DNA of 64,000 bases from Escherichia phage vB_ESM-pEJ01. The stretch is taken from sequence record OP114734.1; one strand, written 5' to 3'. A program made the position numbers and the translations under genes. Shown here in pieces: positions 4,217-54,444 of this stretch (positions are counted from its first letter, which is position 1; the number at the start of each line of letters is the position of its first letter). Under the pieces are notes generated by a model. That model saw nothing but the letters and a program-made list of their open reading frames with translations, was not told where the DNA came from and searched no databases.

Positions 4217-4885
4217 TTATCCCCTTTGTTTCTTAACTGAATTTGGATCTGGATTTTCTGGTAGGTCTTCCAGACCCATAGCATAACGTTGTGCATAGAT
4301 TAGCATAAGAATATCGCGAGCGCAATCATGAATTGCATCATGTGCGATAAAACCATCTAGCGTACCCATTGGTAACGGGCATTCACACATACCACGATGC
4401 ATCAATGTACGCTCAATGGCGGTGCGAACATCTCGGATGTTCCAGAATCGCACAGGTTCAAGATTGAACGTCTCACGGGTATTGTGTGCACGGCGGATCA
4501 TATCAACCAGTAACGGAATATCAAACGCATTACCGCGTGACCACATTACGGATTTAACCGGATCTACTCCTACAGATTCACAGAATGCGTTAAAACGCGC
4601 TAAACCTTCTTTAGTTGATACTTCCGTACCATTTGTGATTAATTGCTTTCTCATGCCTTCTGAGGCGGTATTCTTCCACCATTCAACCACACCATGATCA
4701 AACACCCTTACACCTTTCTGGGAAGGAATATCAAATTTTACCAGAAAGGAATTGTCAACCAGTTCTTTAAATGTAGGTGGGTTGTGCGGATCTTCTTTAA
4801 ATCCGATTGCCGCCATATTGATCACCGCCCCATCAGGCGGATAACCTAAACTTTCAAAGTCAATCATTAAATCCACTGGAAGCAT
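4217..4885 (-). CDS. dexA: DexA-like 3'-5' exonuclease
   Basis: 222-aa ORF in the T4 dexA position between gene 39 and dda; sequence resembles remembered DexA but was not aligned. Confidence 0.65.
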   Translation of the reverse strand: MLPVDLMIDFESLGYPPDGAVINMAAIGFKEDPHNPPTFKELVDNSFLVKFDIPSQKGVRVFDHGVVEWWKNTASEGMRKQLITNGTEVSTKEGLARFNAFCESVGVDPVKSVMWSRGNAFDIPLLVDMIRRAHNTRETFNLEPVRFWNIRDVRTAIERTLMHRGMCECPLPMGTLDGFIAHDAIHDCARDILMLIYAQRYAMGLEDLPENPDPNSVKKQRG

Positions 4886-4886
4886 T

Positions 4887-5192
4887 TTAAATATCCTCCG
4901 CTATATGCCGGAACAACTCCAGATCGTTTTTATCTAGAATGAAACCGCTACAATCAATAATCCCTTTACCGTAATTATCAGTTAACAGTCGGTCCGTTGC
5001 CATGTATGCGCGTACTTTGTTGTTAAAATTAATTACATGTTGTGCATAATCACAATGAATCTTTTGACGGTTCCACGCGACAATTGATTGTAGATGTATT
5101 ACATTAGCCACATTATTAATAACAACCATATCAAAACCCTCGCTTAGTGGAATGTTCTGGCATTTTATTGATACATTCAGCTTGGTAGTCAC
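4887..5192 (-). CDS. hypothetical protein
   Basis: ORF track (GTG start at 5192); alternative ATG at 5129 with GAGGG SD would give about 80 aa. Confidence 0.45.
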   Translation of the reverse strand: MTTKLNVSIKCQNIPLSEGFDMVVINNVANVIHLQSIVAWNRQKIHCDYAQHVINFNNKVRAYMATDRLLTDNYGKGIIDCSGFILDKNDLELFRHIAEDI

Positions 5193-5485: not shown

Positions 5486-6877
5486 TCAAATATAGTCTAC
5501 TCGATACCTCGCACGGGTAACACCCACATATAATAACTGCATTGCCAATTCAAAGTCAACATTGTCTGTACACATGCAAGGAGTATACAGGAACACGCGG
5601 TCTACGCTGATCCCTTGTGACTTATGAATGGTGCAAGCTGGTAATGCTTTTACATTCAAGAACATACGCTTCATCGTCCAGAATGAATCCCAATCTGGTT
5701 TAAATTTTGGATTCTCTTTCTTCATTTCGCGATATTGTCCGGCGACCGTATTCAGATAGATAGAGAAAATGTTCTTCTGACGTTGTTCTGTCAGAATGTT
5801 GATTTCTACTAAATCTGGTTTATCTGTAGTGATTCCGACTGCATCTAAACCTACTTTCTGATTTAGGATTTCTTTGTCTTCGTCATCATCGACGCTTTCC
5901 ACTTTCAGAGTATATCCTAAAACTGGTTGCGGATCTACCCCCGTGCAACGTAATGTAAATTCACGCGGGATGACCTCTTTAACTCGGATCATCTCACCAT
6001 TGTTAAAAATAACATTGGGAATCTTCTTCCCGCGTTCATCTCGCAGATATTCGATCAATGGTTCCTGAGTAACCAGAATTTCATCTACAATCACTGGTTC
6101 ATCGGTGTTATAAACGCGCTTACGTACAATTTCATTGAGTTTTTCGACGCTCTTGTTAGTGTAGGCCAGAATACGGTTTTCTAGAAGGTCTTCCGGCGTT
6201 TTAACGGTTTCGAAATAATGCTTCATAAACTCCGGCAGAGTTGAGCTATGGAATACACCCTCGTTGCCGCACTGCTTTTCGAATACCCATTTACCATTAC
6301 GGACAGCGGTCGCCACATCAATTATTGGCGCATTAGATCGTTTAATCTCTGTAAGTTCTACATTCTGAAACCTTTCATCGGTGAAGAAAGGAGAGATCGA
6401 CGTTGCACCGCTCGGATCAACTGGTCGTAACTGGTACAGATCACCCACGGCAATAATAACAATTCGACCGTTGATACTCTTCATGAGAATATCAAATAGT
6501 TTCTTATCGACCATACTCGCTTCATCAACAATGATGATCTGAACATCATCTAGCTTAGGAGTATCTTTTTGCTCAAATACTTGAGTATCTTCATAGTTGG
6601 TCGGGTTTAGTCGCAGTAGTGCATGTAAAGTAAATGCTTGACGACCTACCGCTTTACTCAAAACTTTTTTAGCCTGGTGGGTAGGCGTTGCCAAAACCAC
6701 ACCAGTTACACCACGACGGACCATTTCCTGAACAATGAATTTCATCATTGCGGTTTTACCAGTACCCGCCGCACCACGGACAGTTGTATGCTTCTTTTGT
6801 TCAATGCGTTTCATTAGAACATCAAAAGCATGTTTTTGCCCGTCTGTTAACATATCGAAAGTTAATACTCTGCTCAT
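5486..6877 (-). CDS. dda: Dda DNA helicase (SF1)
   Basis: Walker A GAAGTGKT; FTEIKRSNAPIIDVATAVRNGKW and C-terminal LLYVGVTRARYRV match remembered T4 Dda; GAGGA SD. Confidence 0.92.
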   Translation of the reverse strand: MSRVLTFDMLTDGQKHAFDVLMKRIEQKKHTTVRGAAGTGKTAMMKFIVQEMVRRGVTGVVLATPTHQAKKVLSKAVGRQAFTLHALLRLNPTNYEDTQVFEQKDTPKLDDVQIIIVDEASMVDKKLFDILMKSINGRIVIIAVGDLYQLRPVDPSGATSISPFFTDERFQNVELTEIKRSNAPIIDVATAVRNGKWVFEKQCGNEGVFHSSTLPEFMKHYFETVKTPEDLLENRILAYTNKSVEKLNEIVRKRVYNTDEPVIVDEILVTQEPLIEYLRDERGKKIPNVIFNNGEMIRVKEVIPREFTLRCTGVDPQPVLGYTLKVESVDDDEDKEILNQKVGLDAVGITTDKPDLVEINILTEQRQKNIFSIYLNTVAGQYREMKKENPKFKPDWDSFWTMKRMFLNVKALPACTIHKSQGISVDRVFLYTPCMCTDNVDFELAMQLLYVGVTRARYRVDYI

Positions 6878-50717: not shown

Positions 50718-51308
50718 TCAATAGCGTTTAGTCTTAAGAATGCCTTTACTCTTTAGATGGTTAGCCTTTTTTAGTACGTCATCAGCATAACCTAATCCGG
50801 CTTTATAGTTCCATCCAGCATTGTAAGAAGCTAGCGCGAGTCGGATATTACCGTTTCGAACATCCAGCCAGTATGCTAACTCATCCATCGCGTAGAATGC
50901 AGAAACCTCGCGATTCATGATAAAGTTGATAGTCTGGCGATCACTCATTTTAACACCGAGCTTTGCATTTTTCGCTTTCACCGTTTTAAGGTAATTTTGA
51001 AACAATCCATAAGCATGATGATTTTTCTTTGGTGCTAAGTTTGCACCCGCGCTTGATTCTTGCCATGCGATACCCGCCAGGATGTGGCCTAAACCCTTTC
51101 CGTTATAGCGAATATTCGGATGGTCCTTTTTCAACTTACCGCTTTTCTCGAATTGCTCGCCGTATTGATAGGCGAAATGTAAATTATCTAGTTGGTGTGC
51201 TGTAAAGTTGTCTATCGGCGCTTTTTTGATCGGTGCGCTAGTCGATGCGTGTGTAGCACCAACGGCTAGTGACAGACTCAATACTATCGCTTTTAGAACT
51301 TTTAACAT
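50718..51308 (-). CDS. secreted lytic transglycosylase (SLT domain) with signal peptide
   Basis: Signal peptide MLKVLKAIVLSLSLAVGATHA; SLT catalytic region GIAWQESSAG...YGLFQ. Confidence 0.5.
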   Translation of the reverse strand: MLKVLKAIVLSLSLAVGATHASTSAPIKKAPIDNFTAHQLDNLHFAYQYGEQFEKSGKLKKDHPNIRYNGKGLGHILAGIAWQESSAGANLAPKKNHHAYGLFQNYLKTVKAKNAKLGVKMSDRQTINFIMNREVSAFYAMDELAYWLDVRNGNIRLALASYNAGWNYKAGLGYADDVLKKANHLKSKGILKTKRY

Positions 51309-51393
51309 TAATTTCTCCTGTTTGGCTTAACTTTCTGATTCCATAATATAGCCCTATCACCAGAAAGTCAAGCATTAATTTAACCAATTTCCA

Positions 51394-51816
51394 TTATTGG
51401 TCTACCTTCAAAACAACCGCCGACATTTTACCCGCCAGTCGTTTTGGATTCTCTATAATCATTCGGCAGCATAGACCGTGATATGGCTTACCCTCTTCGA
51501 TTAGATCTACTGTCATCCCGATCCACATGTTACCATCAGTAATTTCTAATCGATTAGGTCGGTCTTCCATTTTCAGGAAGTCGAAGATCTCCGGCAAACG
51601 AGTTTCTATCTTATTGAATAGTTCCATTGTCTTATGTTCATCGATATGACGATCGGTTAGACGGTCGATCATATGCGGACTAAAGCGAATGAAAATATAC
51701 TCACCGTAACCATCATTCAAGCACTTTTCTTTGATCTGCGCATTGGTTTTGCGCATTTCGGTTTCGAAGAATCTACGCAGCTTACTACGGCGAACATGTA
51801 CGTTAATTGTTTCCAT
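51394..51816 (-). CDS. regB: RegB endoribonuclease
   Basis: INVHVRRSKLRRFFE...NRLEITDGNMWIGMTV...CRMII resembles remembered T4 RegB; start at ATG 51816 (AAGGA SD). Confidence 0.8.
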   Translation of the reverse strand: METINVHVRRSKLRRFFETEMRKTNAQIKEKCLNDGYGEYIFIRFSPHMIDRLTDRHIDEHKTMELFNKIETRLPEIFDFLKMEDRPNRLEITDGNMWIGMTVDLIEEGKPYHGLCCRMIIENPKRLAGKMSAVVLKVDQ

Positions 51817-51820
51817 TTTA

Positions 51821-52156
51821 TTATCCTTTCTTAAACAAATTGCGAAGCCAGTATACAAACGGGATTTCTTTAAACTTGAATTTCTCTATAGTTAATTCTT
51901 TAGTAGCAAGATGAATACCATAAGCATCATGTGTCACGATATGCCATTTTCTATAGTCCAAATGTGAACAACCGTCTGGATCTAGGTTAATAAGAGTTTC
52001 TCGCTCACTAGGATTATTTTTCCACAATTTTGTAATAGGATCGCACATAATTCGACCTAGCGTACCATGAATAATCTCACAACGGTAAAGTTTTCCAGCA
52101 GTGAGATAGGCGCACCCGTCATAGTCGGTATAAACAAACACTTCTTTAACACTCAT
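51821..52156 (-). CDS. small paralog family protein (member 1 of 3)
   Basis: DPDGCSHLDYRKWHIV motif shared with next two ORFs; start at ATG 52156 (AAGGAG SD, promoter upstream). Confidence 0.5.
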   Translation of the reverse strand: MSVKEVFVYTDYDGCAYLTAGKLYRCEIIHGTLGRIMCDPITKLWKNNPSERETLINLDPDGCSHLDYRKWHIVTHDAYGIHLATKELTIEKFKFKEIPFVYWLRNLFKKG

Positions 52157-52184
52157 TTTAATACTCCTTTGTTTCGATGGGGGT

Positions 52185-52213
52185 ATATTACTACCCCCGT
52201 TTTGTTGTGTCAA
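52185..52213 (-). promoter_or_regulatory. sigma70-type early promoter (-35 TTGACA rc 52208-52213; -10 TAATAT; IR gggggta/taccccc)
   Basis: 17-nt spacer; IR 52180-52199. Confidence 0.45.
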
Positions 52214-52474
52214 CTACTTTTTCAAGATTTTTTTAATTGCGTTCCAAAGACCTTTATTCTCAGGTTGTTTTGGTTCTTCGATTAGTGTCCATGTTCGACC
52301 GTCTAAGTGTGCACAATTTTTAAGACAAATAAAAATCTGGTGTCCCTTATCATCACGGATATAACCACTATTCGCAAATCTTTCATGTGGTGTATATTCA
52401 TACAGTGTATTTGGTGTAATATACTTGCGGTTACTATAAGGTGTCATCACATACATCATGGTACTAACTCCCAT
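52214..52474 (-). CDS. small paralog family protein (member 2 of 3)
   Basis: YEYTPHERFANSGYIRDDKGHQIFICLKNCAHLDGRTWTL; start uncertain. Confidence 0.45.
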   Translation of the reverse strand: MGVSTMMYVMTPYSNRKYITPNTLYEYTPHERFANSGYIRDDKGHQIFICLKNCAHLDGRTWTLIEEPKQPENKGLWNAIKKILKK

Positions 52475-52650
52475 TTATCACCGCGAAGATGAGAACATCC
52501 ACCATCAAGAAGTATCGTAATACGATAACCTATATCATCTTTGATGTAACCGATTGTCGGTGGATTTTCGTCGTCTCGTGTCGGGGTAAAATCATACATC
52601 TTTCCGGGCGTAATATCTTGTCCTTTATTGCTATTGGTATAAACTTTCAT
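52456..52650 (-). CDS. small paralog family protein (member 3 of 3)
   Basis: YDFTPTRDDENPPTIGYIKDDIGYRITILLDGGCSHLRGDKWEL. Confidence 0.45.
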   Translation of the reverse strand: MKVYTNSNKGQDITPGKMYDFTPTRDDENPPTIGYIKDDIGYRITILLDGGCSHLRGDKWELVP

Positions 52651-52671
52651 TTTCTTAATCTCCTATATTAA

Positions 52672-53370
52672 CTAACCACGGGTATAGTGTTCCAGAACAA
52701 CTGTCAGATGAATATATTCTAATAGATCTTTCCAAAAGTCAACATCTGGTTCTTCCGGCATACCGTTTTTCTTTGCCTCTTCACGCGCGAGTTTAACACG
52801 TTCGTAGAGATCTTTCAATTCTTCCCGCACATTATCAAAGGTTCTTTCTCCTAACTTACACGCTAAAATAGAAGAACGTCGCGCGAGCGGGAATTGTAGA
52901 TCACCTGTCTGATAGATTTCAAGTAGCTGATAACCAACACGCAGAGCATGAGAAAGATCTTTCCAGTTACTGAAATACTTTTCAGATTTGGCTACCTGTT
53001 TCTTGAGATAACCAGACAAACCCCACATCCCAACATGATAGAATTTATCGCGATGTGTTCGGATGTATTCCCATTCTCTGGAGGATTCAATCAACATGTT
53101 ACTAGGCGCGTGCACCATGTCAATAGCGCCGATATCACCTTTACATGCCAGATTGATAAACCGTTTTAGACTAAACATATTAACGTCAATATCGTCTTTG
53201 GTGTTCTTGATACCTTGACCGCTAGTGCTTTGGTCATAGTGTTCTTTCATCGATCCTAAGATAATTTCTTTCGCAGTCGGAACAAAGATACCACGATAAT
53301 CTTTATCTGAATTTTCAGTATCAAGGCCGTATAAGTGAGATCCGAAGACCATTTTAACCATTGTATGCAT
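52672..53370 (-). CDS. minimal nucleotidyltransferase (Pol-beta superfamily fold)
   Basis: hG[GS]-x(n)-DhD signature FGSHLYGLDTENSDKDY near N-terminus; 232 aa with helical C-terminal half. Confidence 0.5.
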   Translation of the reverse strand: MHTMVKMVFGSHLYGLDTENSDKDYRGIFVPTAKEIILGSMKEHYDQSTSGQGIKNTKDDIDVNMFSLKRFINLACKGDIGAIDMVHAPSNMLIESSREWEYIRTHRDKFYHVGMWGLSGYLKKQVAKSEKYFSNWKDLSHALRVGYQLLEIYQTGDLQFPLARRSSILACKLGERTFDNVREELKDLYERVKLAREEAKKNGMPEEPDVDFWKDLLEYIHLTVVLEHYTRG

Positions 53371-53388
53371 AATTAAACCCTCAGTTGA

Positions 53389-53982
53389 TTAAACGTATTC
53401 AGCAACAACATTATGTTTAAAATTACCGCTCCTTTTTGGATTTGGATTTTTCAATCGACTATGTATTAAATTTTTGTTGTATCCGGTTGCTTTAGACGCT
53501 TCGCCAATACTTTGATAAACAACACCATTAACACGAATCGGACGAGACTTATTAAACAGTTTATTCAATCCGGCATCATATGCATGGTTTTGGTTTTCTT
53601 GCCTCGTTGCGATCTCAAGATTCCAAACACAATTACAAGATTTTACCCCACTTTTATGATTAATTTCAAGACCTTCACAATCACCTATAAAGTGTTCAGC
53701 AACTAGTCTATGAATATAGCGATATTTCTTACTTTCCCCATCATGCAAGCATACATTATAATAACCATCACCAGCGCGTTTAGGTCGGAGTAGTTTACCT
53801 TTAACACGTTTTATAGTAGGGAACTCACCAAATTGATTTCTCTGGATAAACGGAATCTCGCGGTCTAATGAACGGATTCGACCATAGTTAGACACTTGAT
53901 AAAAACTTTCATATCCTTTAATTGGCTTCCATATCTCAGGGATTTCTACACCATCAATAACAACAAGTTTAAATTCTTCCAT
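53389..53982 (-). CDS. HNH homing endonuclease (NUMOD4-like N-terminus plus HNH)
   Basis: IKGYESFYQVSNYGRIRS (NUMOD4-like); YIHRLVAEHFIG...INHKSGVKSCNCVWNLEIATRQENQNH (HNH). Confidence 0.75.
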   Translation of the reverse strand: MEEFKLVVIDGVEIPEIWKPIKGYESFYQVSNYGRIRSLDREIPFIQRNQFGEFPTIKRVKGKLLRPKRAGDGYYNVCLHDGESKKYRYIHRLVAEHFIGDCEGLEINHKSGVKSCNCVWNLEIATRQENQNHAYDAGLNKLFNKSRPIRVNGVVYQSIGEASKATGYNKNLIHSRLKNPNPKRSGNFKHNVVAEYV

Positions 53983-54001
53983 ATTTCACCTCATAAAAAT
54001 A

Positions 54002-54025
54002 AAGCCAACCCTTTCGGATTGGCTT
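54002..54025 (-). terminator. rho-independent terminator 3' of GrcA-like gene
   Basis: rc hairpin aagccaatccgaaagggttggctt followed by UAUUUUUAU. Confidence 0.45.
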
Positions 54026-54030
54026 GTTGA

Positions 54031-54444
54031 TTACATAGATTCCGTAAAGGTACGGGTGATAATATCAAGTTGTTGTTCGCGTGTCAAGGCGTTGAAGCGG
54101 GTAGCATAACCACTGATTCGAATTGTAAGCTGCGGGTACTTCTCAGGATGTTCAACCGCATCAAGAAGAGTCTCCCGACGCAGTACATTCGCGTTGAGAT
54201 GATGACCCGCGTTACTATTTACCCCGTTATCAATTGCTAAAGGACGGAAGCTAGTTGTGTGCAGTTCCAGCGAATCGACGTCTTCTGCGGTGATCACATG
54301 ATCTTCTGCGAAAGTTTTACTAACAATTACTTTAGCGCCGATCAGTGCTTTCGGTTCGGATACCAGAATCATAGGCGCGAAATGTCCACCGATAATAGTA
54401 CCTTTATGCTCACCTTTCATGATTTGAATTGCTTTAAATTCCAT
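54031..54444 (-). CDS. GrcA/YfiD-like autonomous glycyl radical cofactor protein
   Basis: C-terminal [58 protein letters not shown] closely matches remembered E. coli GrcA incl. glycyl-radical RxSGY motif. Confidence 0.7.

Follow-up and report, generated by a model that had tools for sequence, protein, structure and literature searches.

Three tandem paralogs with a predicted SH3-like fold precede regB in a Krischvirus coliphage

What are the three small open reading frames (ORFs) that lie beside regB, the RegB endoribonuclease gene, in Escherichia phage vB_ESM-pEJ01 (sequence record OP114734.1), and are they related to one another? We analyzed a 64,000-nucleotide (nt) stretch of this record, hereafter the window, which on sequence grounds belongs to an RB49-type T4-like coliphage of the genus Krischvirus. 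A preliminary, sequence-only reading had described the three ORFs as a small metal- or nucleic-acid-binding domain duplicated in tandem and sharing a Cys/His motif. The positions it assigned to the adjacent ORFs, 51821–52650, are exact: 52650 is the first base of the ATG of the first gene and 51821 the final base of the stop codon of the third, and all three lie on the minus strand. In the order of transcription, we refer to them as copies A, B, and C. Copy A (52456–52650) encodes 64 amino acids and consists of the bare domain without a tail. Copy B (52214–52459; 81 amino acids) carries a cationic amphipathic C-terminal tail after the domain, and copy C (51821–52156; 111 amino acids) combines a divergent domain (residues 1–77) with a 34-residue basic tail. 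Their orthologs are ORF097, ORF096, and ORF095 of phage Phi1 and BN201_0098, BN201_0097, and BN201_0096 of phage GEC-3S, respectively.

Pairwise BLASTP comparison aligned A with B at 40% identity (E = 7e-13) and A with C at 33% identity (E = 1e-4); the match between B and C was weak (E = 2e-3). When compared to PHROGs, A and C were assigned to phrog_6261 (E = 1e-28 and 1e-37) and B to phrog_15978 (E = 8.6e-61), with a cross-hit of B to phrog_6261 and cross-hits between both families. Since the PHROG profiles probably include the orthologs themselves, an independent test was made with a hidden Markov model (HMM) of 141 distant family members from which every Krischvirus-like sequence had been removed. 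With this HMM, copies B, A, and C scored 83.9, 79.5, and 52.5 bits, against 11.0 bits for the best of 3000 shuffles and 9.2 bits for the best of the other 1043 ORFs in the window. A fourth copy was sought in the 64-kb window, and none was found. The similarity of the three adjacent ORFs is therefore significant, and BLASTP, the PHROG cross-hits, and the independent HMM agree on a small domain duplicated in tandem. We conclude from these sequence comparisons that the ORFs are true paralogs arranged as a tandem array of one family. PHROGs, of which all three are members, splits this homologous family in two and gives no fold, function, or paralogy.

The shared motif quoted in the sequence-only reading, Y-E/D-Y/F-T-P followed by G-Y-I-K/R-D-D-x-G, is complete in A and B but incomplete in C. 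Copy C keeps L-T-x-G-K-x-Y, I-x-L, C-S-H-L, and W-x-I-V; it has no T-P, and K-N-N-P-S-E replaces I-x-D-D-x-G. The family signature, T-x-G-K-x-Y ... I-x-D-D-x-G ... C-x-H-L ... W, is likewise whole in A and B, while C keeps the three elements other than I-x-D-D-x-G.

A word-indexed protein search with copy A returned close relatives only, and an exhaustive profile search was needed to recover the family. When 1.84 billion (1.84e9) representative proteins were searched at E ≤ 1e-3, 166 representatives were found; among the 150 matches listed, five were clear repeat-protein false positives. Members are mostly single-domain proteins of 58 to 70 amino acids, and a few (P0031, P0032, and P0045) contain two or three domains per chain. 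The family consensus is MkVkTdy.gc.YITpGK.Yev...gyI.DD.G..i.Ill.gCAHLdG..WevVe. In copy A numbering, Tyr19 is conserved in 100%, Trp60 in 99%, Thr14 in 95%, Lys17 in 93%, Cys52 in 92%, Asp39 in 91%, and His54 in 85% of domains; the segment between the G-K-x-Y and I-x-D-D strands is hypervariable in length and sequence. Cultured carriers include T1-like Drexlerviridae (Bas10/IsaakIselin, W011D, SRT8, and Klebsiella phages), Vibrio phages of 130 to 140 kb, and Pectobacterium phage MA13. Both T1-like phages Bas10 and W011D have two adjacent domain genes each. Among the 128 members used for further profile comparisons, 119 match phrog_6261 and 101 match phrog_15978.

As detected, the family appears only in phage-type sequence. 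Foldseek against viral models returned uncharacterized phage proteins only, and a search for related loci with a narrower alignment returned two viral loci only. No member turned up in two scans covering the genomes of 185,579 bacterial and archaeal species, which is a weak negative given the narrow patterns used; two DNA-pattern matches in these scans were judged to be chance. No Tequatrovirus match was obtained in tblastn searches, and tblastn with the artificial family consensus gave no match at all, probably because of low-complexity masking. Pfam, NCBIfam, PADLOC, and protein sequences of solved structures (PDB) yielded nothing significant for the three window proteins or the 128 members: in Pfam, A and C had no match at E ≤ 1 and B none of relevance, and 0 of 128 members matched PADLOC-DB 2.0, which holds defense-system components and not anti-defense proteins, at E ≤ 0.01, so that none resembles a known anti-phage defense protein by this comparison. 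Weak matches to DUF6501, Tudor_5, and RecO_N_2, each from single or few members at E of about 1e-3, were taken as noise. The domain partners in longer relatives all belong to families without assigned function, and our literature search found no paper on the ORF095–ORF097 trio.

Structure prediction, proposed by the sequence-only reading as a check, was performed with AlphaFold2 and a 128-sequence alignment. Copy A was modeled as an all-beta protein with a short 3-10 helix at C-S-H-L [predicted local distance difference test (pLDDT) of 96.7]. For copy C, the domain (residues 1–77) reached a pLDDT of ~90, and the tail was poorly defined except for a terminal helix at residues 101–109. The models have five strands with the 3-10 helix before the last strand, and they match SH3 domains structurally. 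The ~60-residue domain is thus predicted to be an SH3-like five-stranded beta-barrel, a fold that says little about the ligand. The likeness to SH3 domains (DNMBP, 4glm; RasGAP, 7tpb; p40phox, 1w6x) is one of fold, at 4 to 15% identity: no profile of the Pfam SH3 families matched any of the 128 members, and the domain lacks the canonical ALYDY / WW / P-x-x-Y signature of peptide binding.

The top structural match of copy A was Gp54 of phage Bas11 (PDB 9AXB; 6% identity), a small nonessential protein that triggers CapRelSJ46 (PMC11578894). The resemblance is at the level of fold only. Gp54 is a six-stranded barrel that the family profile does not detect (E > 1), and nothing links the window proteins to CapRel.

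Does the Cys/His motif make these domains metal binding, as the sequence-only reading supposed? The motif amounts to a single Cys and a single His spaced two residues apart within the predicted 3-10 helix. Across 169 domains, these are the only conserved candidate ligands (Cys in 92% and His in 85%). Cys is otherwise Ser (~8%), and His is replaced in ~15% of domains by Phe, Tyr, Trp, and others; within Krischvirus itself, the second allele class of copy B (phages E26 and JK32) reads C-A-Y-L, with Tyr in place of His. One Cys and one His, both replaceable, are too few ligands for a zinc site; a zinc finger or comparable Cys/His domain has three or four conserved metal ligands. A zinc mini-domain whose site is completed by dimerization or by an additional Cys in the RT loop could still be envisaged: C-x-H is the best-conserved polar motif, the RT-loop position, near the 3-10 helix in an SH3 fold, is Cys in 34% of domains, including copy C, which has both cysteines, and in a relative, the same gene cluster contains, at other sites, unrelated “Phage_zn_bind” ORFs that are small and rich in Cys. 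However, at the relevant positions A and B each have just one Cys, and no zinc-finger or treble-clef family matches. Moreover, the two cysteines tend to substitute for each other rather than co-occur: of 14 domains without the main Cys, 11 carry the RT-loop Cys (Fisher P = 4.6e-4, uncorrected for phylogeny; HMM positions 10, 48, and 50). We therefore consider a zinc mini-domain very unlikely.

The suggestion of nucleic-acid binding fared no better. The domain is acidic, with a median isoelectric point of 4.9 and a median net charge of −4 (−2 for copy A and −2 for the domain of copy C), which argues against general nucleic-acid binding. Profiles of nucleic-acid-binding barrels (KOW, Sm, Tudor, and cold-shock) gave no significant match; the best, of one member to Tudor_5 at E = 9.5e-4, is not significant over 128 scans. 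Overall, the trio are probably not zinc- or nucleic-acid-binding proteins.

We next describe where the array lies. All genes of the locus are on the minus strand, so that the trio is transcribed upstream of regB, in the order HNH endonuclease, nrdC.11-like gene, A, B, C, regB, vs.1. The earlier placement of the array “downstream of RegB” holds in plus-strand coordinates only; in transcription, the trio comes before regB. The regB gene (51394–51816; PF10715, E = 1.7e-48) directly follows copy C, whose stop codon is 4 nt from the regB ATG. Copy A is preceded, after a gap of 21 nt, by the nrdC.11-like nucleotidyltransferase gene of the RlaP family (52672–53370; PF10127, E = 3.4e-14, and synteny in relatives). 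Both flanking genes serve here as context. The presence of the trio in relatives was also examined: 58 GenBank phage records, all Krischvirus, match the 2.1-kb region at 90 to 99.4% identity over at least 80% of its length, and all 58 carry the trio, annotated as hypothetical apart from a few mislabeled exceptions.

Several of these records, including JK32, G2248, and Skers, label copy C as a “(putative) endoribonuclease,” and nrdC.11 is labeled glutaredoxin or thioredoxin despite being an RlaP-type nucleotidyltransferase. The propagated misannotations of copy C or nrdC.11 are found in JK32, G2248, Skers, FL37/FL38, AV108, and ELT3. We rejected copy C as a RegB endoribonuclease, since it has no Pfam match at E ≤ 1, PF10715 (REGB_T4) included, while the true regB lies adjacent. 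In T4, the slot of the trio between vs.6 and regB is occupied by another three small early ORFs, vs.3, vs.4, and vs.5. These were rejected as homologs: the family HMM gave E > 0.3 (T4 positions 45 to 72 kb scanned), and by eye their sequences look rich in helix rather than in beta structure.

Between copies B and C lies a region (52157–52213, minus strand) with the layout of a promoter-early stem-loop (PeSL). In RB49 and phi1, PeSLs combine a strong sigma-70 promoter with a terminator/attenuator and act as recombination sites for ORFan shuffling (PMC2839356). Here, a sigma-70-like early promoter (TTGACA at 52213–52208, a 17-nt spacer, and TAATAT at 52190–52185; 10 of 12 positions in our scan) is overlapped at its −10 box by a stem-loop, GGGGGTA (52198–52192) pairing with TACCCCC (52185–52179). 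The RNA fold has an energy of −15.3 kcal/mol (z = −2.7), and the GEC-3S record annotates a promoter at the same place. An intergenic promoter and a G-tract/C-tract stem-loop thus stand right before an ORFan, followed by the Shine-Dalgarno (SD) sequence of copy C, and we identify the element from its sequence as the PeSL-type early cassette of copy C with a putative promoter/terminator. Copy C, situated in a hyperplastic region of small ORFans, has the commonest layout of the RB49/phi1 cassettes (PMC2839356), with the poly-G/poly-C stem-loop over the −10 box, whereas A and B lack a PeSL and come after nrdC.11. That paper (Arbiol et al., 2010) mentions neither ORF095–ORF097 nor regB (0 occurrences). 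Rfam gave nothing in 51000–54200.

Since only 21 nt separate nrdC.11 from copy A, A and B are probably cotranscribed with nrdC.11. Copy A is preceded by the SD AGGAG (GGAG at 52663–52660). The ATG of copy B overlaps the TGA of A (ATGA), with GGAG at 52471–52468, 8 nt upstream of the ATG, and copy C has the SD AAGGAG (GGAG at 52167–52164). GGAG is the RegB cleavage motif and is present in all three SDs; the trio is therefore likely to be sensitive to RegB. The SD of regB itself, near 51826–51823, is GGAU, as reported for RB49 (PMC3014915).

Farther upstream, an HNH/NUMOD4 homing endonuclease gene (53389–53982, minus strand) separates vs.6 from nrdC.11. Only some Krischvirus genomes carry it (MIZ4/5, AV108, G37-3, LF73P4, FL04, and JK32); phiS and JSE have a different homing endonuclease of 528 to 531 nt at the same site, and most genomes have none. 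The site looks like a hot spot of homing-endonuclease insertion. Upstream of the HNH gene, at 54002–54087 on the minus strand, a strong promoter-like site, TTGACA-17-TATTAT with TG (11 of 12 positions), precedes a GC-rich hairpin of 10 bp and a run of T. The transcript carrying A and B may start here, and the site may represent a further PeSL-like element.

To follow the evolution of the array, we calculated divergence and the ratio of nonsynonymous to synonymous substitution rates (dN/dS) in nine Krischvirus genomes, with DNA identity expressed relative to the window. The flanking nrdC.11 (97.3 to 99.1% identity, dN/dS of 0.03) and regB (96.0 to 99.5%, 0.06) as well as copy C (96.4 to 99.7%, 0.13) all had synonymous divergence (dS) of about 0.085. 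Copy A was 83.6 to 97.4% identical (dN/dS of 0.27, dS of 0.20), and copy B, which occurs as two allele classes, 78.5 to 99.2% identical (dN/dS of 0.19, dS of 0.45). A and B are thus local divergence hot spots. The conserved frames and dN/dS of 0.13 to 0.27 indicate that A, B, and C are coding and under purifying selection, which in A and B is relaxed but real; the raised dS of these two genes points to allele replacement, and they carry older, exchanged alleles. Positive selection was rejected as the source of their variability, since dN/dS is 0.19 to 0.27 and dS is raised too, which allele replacement or recombination fits better.

Two lesions were observed. In FL04, copy A (L011 1501–1681) has a 14-bp deletion that shifts the frame after residue 27, and in JSE, a 1-nt insertion in copy B (L013 1692–1961) replaces the end of the amphipathic tail; a sequencing error may account for either one. 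Taken as real, the frameshift means that copy A is dispensable in FL04, and the two lesions suggest that A and B are dispensable in culture. One could go further and regard the trio as duplicated ORFans, either decaying or without function, that PeSL-mediated shuffling carries with it, since the region is plastic, with PeSLs and homing endonucleases, and the copy number varies among phages. Such decay is difficult to reconcile with the retention of all three loci in every Krischvirus record, the dN/dS values, the signature kept across very distant phages, and the intact SDs and translational coupling, and we consider it highly improbable.

Variation in copy number became evident when more distant T4-like metagenomic phages, with RegB 63 to 64% identical, were compared. 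One locus (L014) reads RlaP, A-like, B-like, PeSL, regB and has no copy C; in another (L024), RlaP is accompanied by an A-like and a B-like gene; a third (L025) has a single A-like copy directly before regB. Thus, one, two, or three copies precede regB directly in four lineages. Copies group by position: A with the first copies of L014 and L024 (L014_1 and L024_1; 80 bits), and B with the second copy of L024 (L024_2; 66 bits), second-position copies grouping together at 66 and 42 bits, while C has no close partner. From these groupings, the A type looks ancestral, the A/B duplication would be old, and copy C would be a Krischvirus-specific addition behind a PeSL. The array may thus have grown stepwise, from an A-type copy upstream of regB through the A/B duplication to the arrival of copy C. 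At 6440–6510 of L014, the same arrangement of promoter and poly-G/poly-C stem-loop, compared by layout and not by formal alignment, lies directly before regB.

Two further observations concern paralogs in these contigs. Just upstream of RlaP in L014, a 73-amino acid gene (4777–4998) matches the family weakly and in part only (HMM positions 11–50, E = 1e-5) and may be a degenerate additional paralog. An 83-amino acid protein from a metagenome contig in ENA (P0008; L018 45–296) reads as copy A up to G-Y-I-K-D-D and as the second B allele thereafter, with C and regB next in line. Either an unequal-crossover deletion between A and B or an assembly chimera would account for it; as proof of unequal crossing-over it was rejected, since its gene begins just 44 nt away from the end of the contig and may be chimeric.

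The constant presence of a copy right before regB would be explained if the trio were RNA-processing accessories that work with RegB, and perhaps with the nrdC.11 RlaP, to modulate RegB, ribosomal protein S1, or mRNA ends. Synteny of this kind is, however, expected in related phages even without a functional link. The acidic domain, the unrelated vs.3, vs.4, and vs.5 in the slot beside regB in T4, and the members in T1-like, Vibrio, and other phages without regB or RlaP nearby also speak against such a role, which we judge unlikely.

The tails differ among the paralogs. The tail of copy B, LWNAIKKILKK, has a hydrophobic moment of 0.78 and a charge of +4, and 0.1% of shuffles reach as high a moment. 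Copy C ends in FVYWLRNLFKK, and B-like proteins of relatives have similar ends. By the same computation, the moment of the B tail matches that of the membrane-targeting helix of Escherichia coli FtsA; the match is a lead and not a test.

With moderate confidence, we propose that the trio are early, dispensable accessory proteins whose predicted SH3-like barrels serve as binding modules, with loops and tails setting the partner, for host takeover or counter-defense. Sigma-70 early promoters would drive synthesis of the proteins during the first minutes after infection, and RegB cleavage at the GGAG SDs would render their expression transient. They would act by binding rather than by catalysis. 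In this scheme, the invariant residues (T-x-G-K-x-Y, I-x-D-D-x-G, C-x-H-L, and W) mostly build the barrel and its turns, and the hypervariable RT and n-Src loops together with the differing tails may give each paralog its own partner among host or phage macromolecules. The cationic amphipathic helices of B and C could serve as anchors to a membrane or to a partner; A is tailless. In support of the proposal, we count the homology of the copies and the purifying selection on them, their presence in all 58 records, the size of the family, the lack of matches to enzyme, defense, or solved-structure families, the acidic domain, the early-promoter and PeSL anatomy, the orthology pattern and varying copy number upstream of regB, the divergence of A and B, the FL04 frameshift, the adjacent pairs in Bas10 and W011D, the amphipathic tails, and a fusion in one distant member. 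In this protein (P0084; L017 370–942), the SH3-like domain is followed by a segment resembling the N terminus of Tad2/DUF2829 (PF11195; E = 7.8e-4); the match of 20.4 bits is below the Pfam gathering score of 25, and none of the window proteins has such a segment. A neighboring gene of P0084 is T7 Gp5.9-like (RecBCD inhibitor family).

Several points weigh against this proposal. The polar residues T14, K17, D39, C52, and H54 (copy A numbering) are conserved across phages of very different hosts, which a common ligand fits better than diverse host proteins. The complementarity of Cys10 and Cys48 hints at a functional or selected thiol in that region. A dN/dS below 1 gives no direct indication of an arms race, and the constant position beside regB could reflect a link to RNA processing.

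A common ligand is what a small-molecule sponge would require. According to this explanation, a polar pocket formed by T-x-G-K-x-Y and C-x-H binds a ligand such as an immune signaling nucleotide, as do Tad1, Tad2, and Acb2, and more copies provide more capacity or specificity. The conservation of the polar residues across unrelated hosts, the thiol suggested by the cysteine complementarity, the multidomain chains, the apparent restriction to phage-type sequence in the two narrow-pattern scans, and the Tad2-like fusion are all consistent with it. Yet the family resembles no known sponge family, a 60-residue SH3 barrel is short of room for a nucleotide pocket unless oligomeric, the Tad2 match is subthreshold and confined to a single protein, copy C lacks D-D-x-G, and His changes to Tyr or Phe in natural alleles. 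A sponge is therefore, in our estimation, improbable. Comparably small is the chance we give to a broader idea, in which the conserved polar signature is a ligand pocket and the family is either a new class of SH3-like sponges or inhibitors directed at a conserved bacterial immune signal or universal host factor or a set of RegB-type mRNA-processing cofactors. If the sponge or inhibitor version were true, multiplication in tandem and within chains would raise capacity or breadth.

That these genes are hypothetical and clustered in PHROGs was already known; the family-level picture of a predicted SH3-like fold, wide distribution among phages, and stepwise growth of the array by a PeSL appears to be new to description. 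It corrects the propagated labels of copy C as “endoribonuclease” and of nrdC.11 as “glutaredoxin.” In practical terms, its value stays modest as long as no partner or phenotype has been found. Three “hypothetical” ORFans of 58 coliphage genomes obtain a predicted fold, a family definition, and a probable evolutionary history, and the same holds for at least 166 related protein clusters, some of them genes of the BASEL phage Bas10. Within T4-like and T1-like genomes, the family resides in the plastic early region, the usual place of host-takeover and anti-defense genes, and the trio would represent an ORFan array that has grown from one to two to three copies next to a PeSL cassette.

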